IMG/VR virus record: IMGVR_UViG_3300025398_000034 | Location: 1 to 46,089 of that record | DNA: 46,089 nt | Source: a virus | Taxonomy: Duplodnaviria > Caudoviricetes | Direction: 5' to 3' (one strand) | In this document: positions 13,341-29,883 of the stretch, one piece after another | Layout: every line of letters begins with the position of its first letter | How positions within the stretch are numbered: the first letter of the stretch is position 1 | Notes under the pieces: generated by a model | Seen by the model: only the letters and a program-made list of their open reading frames with translations | What the model was told of the DNA's origin: nothing | Databases searched by the model: none | Program-made: the position numbers and the translations under genes

Positions 13341-13937
13341 CTAAGATAAAATTGATAACGCTTTTGTAGTAAGCGATATCCTTTCCTGCAAACCAAATGT
13401 ACCGCCATTGATACGTTTGGTTAAGCCCTCCCAGTTTTGGGCTTCAGCAAGCTCATTACAGCCATGAGTCTTCCAGAACCACCCTGCACTTAGGGCGGCA
13501 TACATGGGAGATGCTACCAAGGCAGTATCACCAGTGACAAAGTTTTGATTCACTGCTTGGCCAAAGTGCCAATAGTTATCGTGGCCAGTCAGTTGGATAC
13601 AGCCTCTGCCGTGGAATTTCCATCCGTCTCCCGAAGATTCATCACGATTTCCCATTCGATTAGCATAAATCCGATTGGCAATTTTCTCTGGATGGTGAGC
13701 GTAAACGGCAATCTCTTCTGGCTTAAATTTATGTCCGAAGAGCTTTTCCAAGGTTTCTGGTCTGTAGTTAAGGTTTTCTTCCAATGTCTTGAAATGGTTG
13801 CACTCATGCGAGCACTGTCCGATAAAAGCGGCCATTTTTTTGGCATCATTCATCCCAAACGTGGTAAATGTTGTAGTTAAGGGTTCTGACCATTCAGCAC
13901 CTATACCTAACGCATGGAGCTTTTCAGGACTGATCAT
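13341..13937 (-). CDS. Glycoside hydrolase family 19 endolysin, 198 aa
   Basis: AAFIGQCSHE, EENLNY, GDGWKFHGRGCIQLTG..NY, SAGWFW, TKRINGG. Confidence 0.92.
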   Translation of the reverse strand: MISPEKLHALGIGAEWSEPLTTTFTTFGMNDAKKMAAFIGQCSHECNHFKTLEENLNYRPETLEKLFGHKFKPEEIAVYAHHPEKIANRIYANRMGNRDESSGDGWKFHGRGCIQLTGHDNYWHFGQAVNQNFVTGDTALVASPMYAALSAGWFWKTHGCNELAEAQNWEGLTKRINGGTFGLQERISLTTKALSILS

Positions 13938-14497
13938 TTGACACCCTCGTTGACTGTCTGTCTTACTTGGTTGTATTGGGTAATACAGGCGTTGAGGCTT
14001 GTGATGGCGTTGTCTCCTTCTGTTGCGATGGAGATAAGAGCTTTGATAGTCTCTCGCTCAGATTCGCTTGGAGGGGCTGTATCTCCTCCGCTAGGGGCGG
14101 CATTTGTATTGGCTTGTACACCACAGGAGGAGGGGAGGCGCAACTCACCAGAGTCAGCCCTAGCATCAAGGCGAGCTTTGTTTGAATTAATTGCATTTCT
14201 TTCCTTCTGTAGTGAACTACTCAAATTTTTTACTTTTGTAGTTAGCTCTGCTTCTTTTGCCCGAGCTTCGCCATTAAGTCGCTCAATTTCGACTTGATCT
14301 TCTGTAACTCTTCTTTGATAACCGTGATGATCTGCGACATAGTAACCTCCTAAAATCATTAAAATAACACTGACAATCTGTACTGGGAACTTATATGTAC
14401 CCAACGGAAACACGTAAGACACTACGTGTACCAAAATTGAACATATAAGTACACAATATGCAATATAGAGGAAAATGTTAGCGAAAAATTCAATCAT
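13934..14497 (-). CDS. Rz: i-spanin (Rz-like), 187 aa from ATG 14497
   Basis: N-terminal TM segments, coiled coil, GELRL, C-terminal D.AI..LNAC..QY; ATG overlaps the end of the upstream gene; hosts an embedded lipoprotein gene. Confidence 0.8.
   Translation of the reverse strand: MIEFFANIFLYIAYCVLICSILVHVVSYVFPLGTYKFPVQIVSVILMILGGYYVADHHGYQRRVTEDQVEIERLNGEARAKEAELTTKVKNLSSSLQKERNAINSNKARLDARADSGELRLPSSCGVQANTNAAPSGGDTAPPSESERETIKALISIATEGDNAITSLNACITQYNQVRQTVNEGVK
13963..14196 (-). CDS. Rz1: o-spanin lipoprotein (Rz1-like) embedded in the i-spanin gene, 77 aa
   Basis: Signal peptide with lipobox LVS-C, then Pro-rich ASPPPVVYKPIQMPP, nested in another frame of Rz. Confidence 0.82.
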   Translation of the reverse strand: MQLIQTKLALMLGLTLVSCASPPPVVYKPIQMPPLAEEIQPLQANLSERLSKLLSPSQQKETTPSQASTPVLPNTTK

Positions 14498-14966
14498 TGA
14501 CGCTATCCCTCGCATGAGCCATTCTAAGTCTTTCCTCGTCATCTTCCAAGACAGGTGGGCCTGACGGAGGGGGTGGAGGTGTCCAATTCTGGAATTGAAC
14601 ATTAGACTGTGGCATTGCCCCAAAAGGTTGCGACATAGCCCCAAAACCCATAGGCTGTCCGAAATTGGGGTAGCAAGGGGGCATCTGAGGTGTTGTGGCT
14701 TGTTTTATCGATCCCAAAGAACCTGCTATGCCCCCCGCTACTTTTTTGCCTGCAACGCCTCCTATTGCCCCCACAAGGAGGAGCACGATGTCGTTGAGCA
14801 TCTTTGTATACGCTTGGTCAATCGGGGCCATAGCTTTAATAGGCTGAACCACAAAAGTGACGGAATAAAGAAGAGCAATAACAATGAAAAATAAAATGGC
14901 AGTAATAGATAGGACAACAATCGCCCAAACACGAGTGACAATTTCTTCATCTGTTAATCTATTCAT
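14490..14966 (-). CDS. Putative holin, two TM helices plus Pro/Gln/Met-rich tail, 158 aa
   Basis: VWAIVVLSITAILFFIVIALLYSVTFV and IVLLLVGAIGGVAG; located in the lysis cassette. Confidence 0.6.
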   Translation of the reverse strand: MNRLTDEEIVTRVWAIVVLSITAILFFIVIALLYSVTFVVQPIKAMAPIDQAYTKMLNDIVLLLVGAIGGVAGKKVAGGIAGSLGSIKQATTPQMPPCYPNFGQPMGFGAMSQPFGAMPQSNVQFQNWTPPPPPSGPPVLEDDEERLRMAHARDSVND

Positions 14967-15124
14967 TTCACTGGCGCGGTCAAGTACTCAGGACAAGTCT
15001 GACTAAACTCGCACTGAGGATGCTGACACTCTTTCTCATTAAAATGGGCAAAGTCTTGACACTTGTACCTGTAAGCATCTTTACAGGAAACTAGTAAAAG
15101 CGTGAGAATAATTACATATCTCAT
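14963..15124 (-). CDS. Unannotated 53-aa Cys-rich lipoprotein: MRYVIILTLLLVSCKDAYRYKCQDFAHFNEKECQHPQCEFSQTCPEYLTAPVK
   Basis: Translated by hand (below the ORF-track cutoff); lipobox LVS-C; its stop overlaps the holin ATG (ATGA); AAGGTG upstream. Confidence 0.8.
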   Translation of the reverse strand: MRYVIILTLLLVSCKDAYRYKCQDFAHFNEKECQHPQCEFSQTCPEYLTAPVK

Positions 15125-15671
15125 TCAATGACACCTTTGCTTTTTTGGTAGTCTAGATGAATACCATACATGAGTACGGAGAAAATAAATATCCATGTAA
15201 CCACGCCCGTAGCCAAAGCCACTCGAACTTTCCATTTATCGATAAACTGGCGGCGCTGAAGGGCAACCAACTCACGGGCTTTTTTTCGTCACGCTCGATT
15301 TTTTCTCGCTCTTTTCGCACAATTTCGCGCATTTCTGTGAACTTTTGCCATAAACCGGGCATCCCGACCTGATAAATGATCATTTCTCTTAACTCAGTCT
15401 CCATCTGATCGATCTGCTGTTGGCGCAGAATTCTGTTCATTGCCTCTTCGTTGATGCTGATATTCTTGGGCAATGGGTTCTTCTTGGCTTCTTTCTCTGC
15501 TTCTTTGAAAGACTCTTGGTGAGTAAAAAATGCGCCAAGGTTTTTCCCAATATCCCCGACAATATCACCAACGTCTTTACCGTCCCGCTTGAAGTCTTGA
15601 TATAGATCAATGCACTCACGAATCCCTGCATGAGCCGCCTTACACGCCGCAAAGATGGTGATTGGATCCAT
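15121..15671 (-). CDS. Coiled-coil membrane protein of the lysis cassette: 172 aa in frame 0 (stop 15153) or 183 aa via a -1 shift at A_AAA_AAG (stop 15121)
   Basis: The -1 frame continues ARELVALQRRQFIDKWKVRVALATGVVTWIFIFSVLMYGIHLDYQKSKGVIE and its TGA overlaps the next ATG. Confidence 0.7.
15279..15285 (-). other. Candidate -1 ribosomal frameshift heptamer A_AAA_AAG
   Basis: Codons GAA AAA AAG place the heptamer in the canonical X_XXY_YYZ phase. Confidence 0.55.
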
Positions 15672-15865
15672 TAGATTCCAAAGAACTTGTGGAAAAACTG
15701 AGCCGCCACACCCGGCCCAAACATCACCATGGCCATCACAGCATAGATCAAATACTCGATCTTAGTCATGCGTCTTTCGCCATTCTTTAACGATGCTTCA
15801 ATGTTGCGATAGCGCTCATCGCAAACAGCAATGTGGACGGCTAGGTCTTTCTCGGTATCGCTCAT
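15671..15865 (-). CDS. Small coiled-coil plus TM protein (XhlA/holin-like), 64 aa
   Basis: HIAVCDERY coiled coil followed by YLIYAVMAMVMFGPGVAAQFF; first gene of the lysis cassette. Confidence 0.65.
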   Translation of the reverse strand: MSDTEKDLAVHIAVCDERYRNIEASLKNGERRMTKIEYLIYAVMAMVMFGPGVAAQFFHKFFGI

Positions 15866-28206: not shown

Positions 28207-29883
28207 TTACTTTTTGATACTGCCACCACGCTTTTTAGGTGGTACAACTGTAGTTGATTTTACAGTTTTAGTCACGCTACCTGATGGAGGCGCTCCAAAT
28301 CCCAAAGCATTCTTGACCATGTTGTATCCACTTGTTAGCGGCTTCAACATCATGTCACGCATTGCTATATTGTCGGCCTTGTCTTGTTTTGCAACAGAGT
28401 CATAGCCTCCATGAGATTCGTCAGTGGTAGAGCCACCACCATCAAACTTTTTTACGTGGCCACCCTTCTTGAACACACCCGACAACTCATTGATCCGAGT
28501 AGCTCTTGAAGGAGGTTTGTTAGCTTGGGGCATTACCACGGCAGAACCCTGTTTGTTAACAGAGCCCCCCGTGGCGAAGTGCTTTTTTGCGTGGCCACCT
28601 CGCTTGAATCCACCTGCATTAGCTTCTTTCACCTCACCAGTTTTGGTGTGTGATTTGCCCTTGGGTGTAGTATCAACATTGTAGTTGGTGAAGTGACCTT
28701 CATTGCCTTCAATGGTGCCCTCTAGATCAACCATGCCGCCTTTAGCATAGTGGTGCTTCTTAGCCTTGCCACCGTGCTTGAAACCGCCGTCATTGGCCAT
28801 ATCAACTTGGCCTGTACCGCGAGCTTTTCTATCAGGCATTGCAGTGTGCAAATCAGTGTTCTCGTAGTAGTGCTCATTACCCTCGATAGTTCCACCCATG
28901 ACTGACTTGCCACGTGTTTCGCTCTCGTTGGTCTCACTAGGAATACGTGAACCAATTGCACCGCCACTAGCGTACTTGCCGCCTGAACACATAGCTTTAT
29001 GGTGCTCCATCATCTTTTTGTGATGAGCAGAACCACCTTCTTTGTGCATTTTGGCATGGTGTTTAGCCATGTGCTTGTGGTGCTCAATAGAGCCTTCAGG
29101 ATGGCCAGATTTATGGTGAACCTTACCACCATGCTTAAAACCACCTGCATTGCCCTCTTTGATTTCACCAGTACCGTGTGCTGTATCACGACCTGCACCA
29201 ACAACCTTGGTTTTGACAAAAGGCTTTTGGTTGTTTTCAATGGTATTTTTTGTTTCAAAACTATCCATTTCCTTCCCGCCGTCAACCTTGCCACCCTTGG
29301 CATAATGATGTTTAGATCCACCAGTTTTGCATTTTTCCAAATGCTCCATGGCTTTATCTAGATGATGAGCACCGCCACCTTCTTTGTGTTTCTCAAGGCA
29401 AGCTCTGGCTTTAGCAAGATTCTTCATGCGCTCAGAAGCAGAACCACCTGCGGCCATACCTTTGTGGGCTAAGTGAGCAGGCATATGCTCGTGATGACGC
29501 AACTCTTTTTCAATCTTCTCAAAGCGTTTGTCTTCAGCTTCTTGCTCTTTACGAGTTTCGATCTCACCGCCGACAGCCTTGTGAGCCTTGCCACCTTTTT
29601 TCATCAAAGGAGTAGCCATTGCCTTGCGGCGCATAGCCATGCTAGGACGCATAGGAGCCGCACCTGCCATTGCAGGAGCCATGCCCATAGGACGTGCCAT
29701 AGGCATTCCGCTCATTCCACCCATAGCGTGGTGTTCCATTGACTTGTGGCCGTGCTCTTCCTTGCTTTCATGCTTTTTGGAAACATGACCGCCTTTTTTG
29801 AGCTTCAGAATAACTGAAGGCTCGTCAGTCATCATTTTGGGCATTTGGACGAATCCAGTTGCACCCTTCATTGCTTTTGCCAT
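28207..29883 (-). CDS. His/Lys/Met/Gly-rich low-complexity repeat protein, 558 aa (probable internal head protein)
   Basis: AGGAG RBS; about 18 xxxGG motifs; three roughly 60-aa internal repeats. Confidence 0.75.
   Translation of the reverse strand: MAKAMKGATGFVQMPKMMTDEPSVILKLKKGGHVSKKHESKEEHGHKSMEHHAMGGMSGMPMARPMGMAPAMAGAAPMRPSMAMRRKAMATPLMKKGGKAHKAVGGEIETRKEQEAEDKRFEKIEKELRHHEHMPAHLAHKGMAAGGSASERMKNLAKARACLEKHKEGGGAHHLDKAMEHLEKCKTGGSKHHYAKGGKVDGGKEMDSFETKNTIENNQKPFVKTKVVGAGRDTAHGTGEIKEGNAGGFKHGGKVHHKSGHPEGSIEHHKHMAKHHAKMHKEGGSAHHKKMMEHHKAMCSGGKYASGGAIGSRIPSETNESETRGKSVMGGTIEGNEHYYENTDLHTAMPDRKARGTGQVDMANDGGFKHGGKAKKHHYAKGGMVDLEGTIEGNEGHFTNYNVDTTPKGKSHTKTGEVKEANAGGFKRGGHAKKHFATGGSVNKQGSAVVMPQANKPPSRATRINELSGVFKKGGHVKKFDGGGSTTDESHGGYDSVAKQDKADNIAMRDMMLKPLTSGYNMVKNALGFGAPPSGSVTKTVKSTTVVPPKKRGGSIKK

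Follow-up and report, generated by a model that had tools for sequence, protein, structure and literature searches.

Does a gene in the putative lysis cassette of a tailed phage use a programmed -1 frameshift to add a membrane anchor to its product and, if so, by what machinery and to what end? The window, the whole 46,089-nt stretch of DNA analysed here, is an IMG/VR virus record with a completeness of 82%. It encodes terminase, portal and capsid proteins and no tRNA, and it contains the gene in question once. The original prediction placed the shift at an A_AAA_AAG heptamer. The features of the gene are as follows.

15153–15671, minus strand: frame-0 open reading frame (ORF) of 172 aa, consisting of a conserved N-terminal 131 aa and a non-conserved 41-aa tail
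15309–15314, minus strand: AAAGAG, positions -29 to -24, with nearly invariant silent positions (1 and 0 third-position changes)
15289–15296, minus strand: Shine-Dalgarno (SD)-like word GAGCGTGA at -11 to -4, predicted to stimulate the shift from the 5' side or to mark a pause site, and containing a -1-frame TGA
15279–15285, minus strand: slippery heptamer A_AAA_AAG at Glu129-Lys130-Lys131, within a 7-A run (15286–15280)
15240–15276, minus strand: weak 3' hairpin region with a register that differs among homologues; possible modest stimulator
15121–15279, minus strand: -1 frame extension of 52 aa, with coiled coil, basic stretch, transmembrane (TM) helix and short tail
15166–15222, minus strand: predicted TM helix, residues 151–169 of the -1 product, hydropathy 2.09

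On the minus strand the sequence around the break reads GAC GAA AAA AAG CCC, with the heptamer in phase with the ORF 15671–15153. The geometry of both frames was as predicted: frame 0 continues for 41 codons past the heptamer to a stop 28 nt ahead of the ATG at 15124, and the -1 frame stays open for 52 codons to a TGA (15123–15121) that overlaps the ATG of the next gene. The transframe product would have 183 aa. A TM-like segment was found in the -1 tail and none in the frame-0 tail, again as proposed (best 19-residue hydropathy 2.09 versus 0.9); the frame-0 tail is rich in Trp because the TM codons are read out of frame. The frame-0 ORF matches PHROG 32327, a family of unknown function (E 2.3e-6). 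An in-phase A_AAA_AAG is by itself unremarkable, with 3 occurrences in the 13,144 codons of 31 window ORFs. What lies above chance is the invariance of the heptamer combined with a switch of selection to the -1 frame. The two other in-phase copies (28588 and 28453, minus strand, ORF 28207–29883) have short -1 frames and probably arose by chance.

We redid the homologue search with only the N-terminal 128 aa as query, because the frame-0 protein as query could favour broken relatives. The TM motif was in frame in none of the 120 proteins listed out of 250 matches, and 117 of these 120 were 157–173 aa long. Among the metagenome loci obtained with the same query (80 kept of 126), 73 were shifted, 7 were too short and none was in frame. 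Within the window's clade, the heptamer was in phase in 159 of 161 sequences, the remaining 2 being truncated, and it was unchanged in all 84 distinct segments. Four fetched contigs were identical to the window across the gene, although some may be re-assemblies of the same data. A homopolymer sequencing error, a recent mutation or phase variation would fit a break that sits in an A run; we rejected this explanation, the probability of which is negligible, given the same phase and run length in the 159 assembled clade loci, the identical contigs and the lack of any in-frame close relative. With the heptamer conserved and no close homologue carrying the TM segment in frame, the proposed programmed -1 shift is strongly supported, and real recoding at the break is almost certain.

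Selection was analyzed on both sides of the site. On a tree of 77 sequences of clade 1, that of the window, the three silent third positions of the heptamer underwent no change, compared with 0–21 changes (median about 9) at the third positions of 16 upstream Lys, Glu and Gln control codons. The two lowest of these controls were AAA GAG at -29. Likewise, the Arg codon CGT at -8 had no change versus 12–23 at six other Arg codons of clade 1. Clade 2 has AAG GAG where the window has AAA GAG (15314–15309), too far upstream for an SD element of frameshifting. Pooled pairwise pN/pS, computed from non-independent pairs, was 0.13 upstream of the site in clade 1; over the 26 codons past the site it was 0.32–0.33 in the -1 frame versus 1.01 in frame 0, and the corresponding values past the site were 0.44 versus 0.78 in clade 2 and 0.59 versus 0.80 in clade 3. 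Downstream of the heptamer, purifying selection acts on the -1 frame but not on frame 0. Silent divergence was equal in the -1 frame (0.73) and upstream (0.72), and therefore the frame-0 tail puts no constraint on the -1 frame. With a pN/pS of 1.01 and a length of 1–95 aa for this tail, a sequence-conserved second isoform was not supported. Frame 0 was kept free of stops for 25 codons: none of 35 eligible silent changes created a stop, versus 31 of 102 in control stretches, and tails of at least 26 aa were present in 72 of 73 loci of the unbiased set (N-terminal query). Frame 0 stops at once after the site in L110, L342 and L344. In L253–L256, L262, L272 and L277 it is open for 83–95 codons past the site, nearly as long as the -1 frame.

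A profile search of the wider family yielded 145 representatives less than 50% identical to one another. A hydrophobic C-terminal segment is in frame in 104 of the 141 representatives of at most 400 aa, and about ten representatives end in Lys-Lys and an unrelated tail. The -1 extension of the window resembles the in-frame C-termini of relatives, for example P0122, P0127 and P0139. Family DNA comprised 369 sequences, 11 of them truncated, and the rest collapsed to 241 distinct loci. These divide into 90 with A7G at the break, 11 with A6G, 60 with A9, 4 with A9-10 ending in AAG, 74 in frame and 2 unclassed, counts that do not represent population frequencies, as up to 80 loci were taken per scan and queries were chosen partly as broken. 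Clusters P0158 and P0126 (Lys-Lys, then an unrelated tail) stand outside these counts, no DNA having been found for them. At the A9 loci (L173–L252, L342, L344), CAA or GAA AAA AAA A replaces the heptamer, with a -1-frame stop 3–12 nt upstream and a -1 tail of 65–87 aa; the tail of the main clade ends in a Cys-containing domain common to in-frame relatives. Among the 74 in-frame loci, a slippery word is missing near the site in 62 and occurs at other positions in 12.

These classes are interleaved in the family. A quick tree was built from 43 of 65 rows, after removal of 9 with long branches and 13 near-duplicates; on it the shifted state requires 6 changes, at least 3 of them forced by strong branches. 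The tree is unrooted and gives no direction. A single shifted clade was rejected (AU p 5e-56), with the grouping tested after the first tree had been inspected. Even close pairs differ in state: L342 and L344 have A9, whereas L343 and L346 have no run and are in frame. An extra indel near the site in L368, P0117 and P0147, each a single record, is likely an assembly error or the mark of a dead copy. Shortly downstream of the PHROG 32327 members in cultured phages (Roseobacter CRP phages, Limnohabitans phage DC31) come a holin-like gene with a hydrophobic product and an endolysin gene; the two examined of 13 matches, Limnohabitans DC31 and Roseobacter CRP-1, belong to the same kind of cassette but differ from the window in being in frame. 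Our searches found no cultured phage with the split gene and no relative in bacterial genomes, and the ESM Atlas returned unnamed viral clusters only.

How would the break be crossed? A_AAA_AAG is reported to be among the most shift-prone motifs in E. coli (PMC4066793), and the dnaX site alone gave 14% shifting in a cell-free assay (10.1101/2025.10.02.679949). GAGCGTGA was invariant in 84 of 84 distinct clade segments and provided the best anti-SD pairing within 150 nt upstream in clade 1 (mean -8.0 kcal/mol, one bulge). The same word is present in the distant L253 clade (-7.7), clade 2 offers several anti-SD matches of lower strength, and the main A9 clade has none (about -2). The SD-like GAG of the word ends 8 nt ahead of the heptamer, and its pairing needs a bulge. 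As 5' SD-like -1 stimulators are reported at 9–14 nt upstream (PMC5009743), GAGCGTGA may tune or pause rather than stimulate.

On the 3' side, the hairpin of the window was ordinary (-10.2 kcal/mol, z -0.38). The region from +7 to +54 folded more stably than synonymous resamples in 24 of 24 representatives of clade 1 (mean z -1.48), in 4 of 5 of clade 2 (mean z -2.1) and in 9 of 17 of the main A9 clade (mean z 0.05). We found no consensus 3' fold or common register among homologues, covariation was within that of shuffles (76/500 as high), and Rfam gave no match. The GCCCGT/ACGGGC pair and the palindrome at 15235–15246, suggested earlier as stimulators, are present in the window but were not conserved in homologues.

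Transcriptional slippage is reported to use 8–9 A; runs of 9 A slip, and Thermus dnaX uses one (PMC5009743, PMC3711429). At the A6-7G loci the break has fewer than 8 A in a row (90 loci have 7 and 11 have 6), whereas longer runs occur in sister clades, A9 in 63 and A10 in 1 distinct loci. The final G of the heptamer was invariant. From the sequences, we infer that ribosomes shift at A6-7G and that the polymerase slips at A9, the latter with less weight because A_AAA_AAA can also shift ribosomes. In the window's clade itself, RNA-polymerase slippage on the 7-A run has a slim chance: it would accord with the 7 A of all 90 distinct A7G loci, with A9 at the same place in sister clades and with 10% shifting of a 7-A cassette (PMC3711429), but the run was never extended by a change of AAG to AAA (0 changes in the clade), 11 loci have only 6 A, and a word that pairs with the anti-SD is conserved upstream. 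Ribosomal rather than transcriptional shifting is thus highly probable in this clade. It is most improbable that the -1 segment forms an independent small gene translated from a start of its own. The window does offer an in-frame TTG at 15270, but in three clades (27 of 77, 9 of 11 and 44 of 56 sequences, respectively) ATG, GTG and TTG are all absent from the upstream stop to the TM segment, and the in-frame relatives are single polypeptides. A promoter scan was at chance level (10 versus 9.7). A terminator-like hairpin with a T run lies inside the upstream 64-aa gene (15720–15698, minus strand); the scan gave 6 such sites versus 3.3 expected.

We next considered the protein and its surroundings. 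AlphaFold modelled residues 1–131 of the window protein with a pLDDT of 94.9 (helices 3–29, 35–62, 73–102 and 107–130) and the in-frame relative P0122 with a pLDDT of 92. The predicted architecture is a three-helix bundle with a long helix running into the TM segment, and basic residues ahead of the latter suggest an N-in topology. Searches of Pfam and PHROGs gave no match to any named family, holins included. Sequence and fold comparisons with the PDB yielded no significant match, the folds retrieved being generic bundles, and BFVD returned uncharacterised phage proteins only. The N-terminal bundle scored Z 10.2 with syntaxin 6 (rmsd 2.6 over 92 aligned residues), no better than with spectrin-like and designed bundles, and Foldseek gave E 0.6 in the syntaxin-like test. 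Homodimer prediction for residues 1–131 scored 0.00, a value without verdict either way. The neighbouring genes are the following.

15671–15865, minus strand: upstream 64-aa gene encoding a coiled coil and a hydrophobic C-terminus and ending in a stop that overlaps the frameshift gene's start
14963–15124, minus strand: 53-aa Cys-rich predicted lipoprotein with a lipobox-like LVSC; its ATG overlaps the -1 stop (ATGA)
14490–14966, minus strand: protein of 158 aa with a pair of hydrophobic segments; only its position is holin-like; PHROG 25359, unknown function
13934–14503, minus strand: Rz-like inner spanin (PHROG 1327, E 3.7e-11) with an embedded lipoprotein ORF (13963–14196), likely the outer spanin
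13341–13937, minus strand: GH19 endolysin (PHROG 181, E 2e-65; PF00182)

The lysis-cassette setting extends to the family: among loci with enough flank, an endolysin lies at most 2 kb downstream in 94 of 98 shifted and 64 of 65 in-frame cases, in agreement with the original prediction. The endolysins beside family loci are of five enzyme types. The frameshift gene has two features expected of a holin or antiholin gene, at least one predicted TM helix and proximity to the endolysin gene. A role in lysis is suggested solely by this gene neighbourhood.

The explanation that we favour as a whole, with a probability of roughly 0.55, is that the gene is split at an invariant A_AAA_AAG, that ribosomes slip there and that the anchored form is thereby kept low. 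A fraction of ribosomes would slip back one base when their two lysyl-tRNAs let go of A_AAA_AAG and pair with AAA_AAA instead, with modest help from the SD-like word on the 5' side and a loose hairpin on the 3' side, and would make the 183-aa protein with its predicted C-terminal membrane anchor. Ribosomes that do not shift would make a soluble helical bundle with a disposable tail. Ribosomes that do shift would terminate at the start of the following gene, to the translation of which they may contribute. RNA-polymerase slippage on A9 is the likely way across this break in sister clades, and other relatives are in frame.

The slip would thus keep the amount of a lysis-cassette membrane protein low. 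We rank such dose limitation first among the possible purposes, with odds somewhat better than even, because relatives with the gene in frame produce the anchored form and nothing else, and because frame-0 tails range in length from 1 to 95 aa; with 74 distinct loci in frame, the anchored form alone suffices there. Against it, a weak ribosome-binding site would be a simpler way to lower the dose, the protein matches no holin family, and avoidance of stops for 25 codons in frame 0 is not obviously needed by a purely disposable product. Hydrophobic tail ends are known in principle as degradation signals, and that of frame 0 could act as one. It would also fit the stop avoidance that a nearby stop would disturb the shift rate, because ribosomes stalled at a stop 5–11 codons downstream are reported to raise -1 shifting (PMC6815119). 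The main rival is that both products matter, the soluble frame-0 bundle being an antiholin-like partner or antagonist of the anchored form or of the neighbouring holin, at a ratio fixed by the slip, much as for lambda S105/S107 or G/GT. The frame-0 product contains the entire predicted bundle, its frame is kept open, and the break persists by two apparent mechanisms in lineages less than 50% identical. Precedents exist in one-gene holin/antiholin pairs and the cytoplasmic antiholin RIII (PMC6116005), and in TssM, for which both lengths and their ratio are reported to be needed (PMC4256274). However, the 74 in-frame loci, 62 without a slippery word near the site and 12 with one elsewhere, and a frame-0 tail that conserves neither sequence nor length make this reading doubtful, though a serious contender. 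Metering of the next gene by translational coupling (holin-like in most relatives, a lipoprotein in the window) is unlikely as the main function of the shift, but can hold alongside dose limitation by ribosomal slipping. The distance from the stop to the next ATG is at most 15 nt in 147 of 153 shifted loci (-1 stop), compared with 30 of 69 in-frame loci; yet the long in-frame gaps (about 150 nt) seem to stem largely from a single clade, the -1 protein is itself under purifying selection, and the next gene differs among relatives. More speculatively, the family could be a widespread lysis timer, in which one gene gives a tail-anchored holin-like protein and a soluble antagonist by C-terminal recoding, a single homologous site having changed over repeatedly between ribosomal frameshifting, slippage of RNA polymerase and coding in frame; we regard this as possible but tentative.

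Several known systems resemble the gene in part. As reported for dnaX tau/gamma, the E. coli site combines the A_AAA_AAG heptamer with a 5' SD-like word and a 3' structure, and the family swaps a ribosomal site (E. coli) for A9 transcriptional slippage (Thermus thermophilus) (PMC5009743, PMC3711429). In contrast to dnaX, the shift in the window gene extends the protein and adds a predicted membrane anchor in a phage lysis-cassette gene, many relatives are in frame, and the SD spacing (8 nt) is about 2 nt shorter (dnaX position after PMC6815119). Lambda G/GT likewise represents a -1 shift conserved in tailed phages that yields a short and a C-terminally extended product (PMC5009743). The window gene, however, lies in a lysis cassette and not between the tail-tube/major tail and tape-measure genes, and its family has no chaperone homology, a predicted TM helix as extension and common in-frame alleles. 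Lambda S105/S107 and T4 holin T/RIII are pairs of lysis-cassette products that differ in membrane insertion, with single-TM, N-in topology and amphipathic cytoplasmic helices in common with the window protein (PMC6116005, PMC12162936). They arise from dual starts or separate genes instead of a frameshift and share no sequence or fold match with the window family, in which the predicted cytoplasmic part is about 150 aa long. In Citrobacter rodentium tssM1, an A run also gives two lengths of an envelope protein (PMC4256274). That gene differs in belonging to a bacterial secretion system and in having an A11 run. Both TssM forms reportedly retain TM segments.

Phage frameshifts are known mostly from tail-chaperone and capsid genes. 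Our literature search found no report of this gene family or of a three-way swap at one site. The word 'holin' is absent from the first 300,000 characters of a 2016 review and from the main texts of GeneTack and PRFect, the supplementary tables of which could list the family. Earlier citations of lysis-linked frameshifts include one proposed for MS2 lysis and one for a Lactococcus lysin encoded by overlapping genes; recoding of stop codons in lytic genes is a different concept (10.1101/2021.08.26.457843). The recoding mechanisms are already known, and the gene family and the three-way swap are absent from the literature searched. The locus presents a conserved, probable frameshift in a lysis cassette that would toggle a predicted membrane anchor, one that gene callers miss by recording only the junk-tailed product (anchor in 0 of the 120 listed database proteins). 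As natural alleles of three kinds occur at one site (A6-7G, A9, in frame), the family can be used to test what governs the choice between ribosomal and polymerase slippage, and it could also test whether recoding helps time lysis.

Some further observations concern the neighbouring genes. The upstream 64-aa gene has no Pfam or PHROG match, and its positional counterpart in L057 matches PHROG 1193 'hemolysin' (E 2.5e-4). The gene for the small Cys-rich lipoprotein (14963–15124) separates the frameshift gene from the holin-like one; in a phage record from spring water, an in-frame family member is followed by a look-alike (L373, 2830–3033). A 164-aa protein (PHROG 1544, unknown function; for example L004, 3545–4039) is encoded downstream in 69 of 98 shifted loci, its gene often overlapping the -1 stop, and a distant look-alike in L281 matches the holin PHROG 3427.
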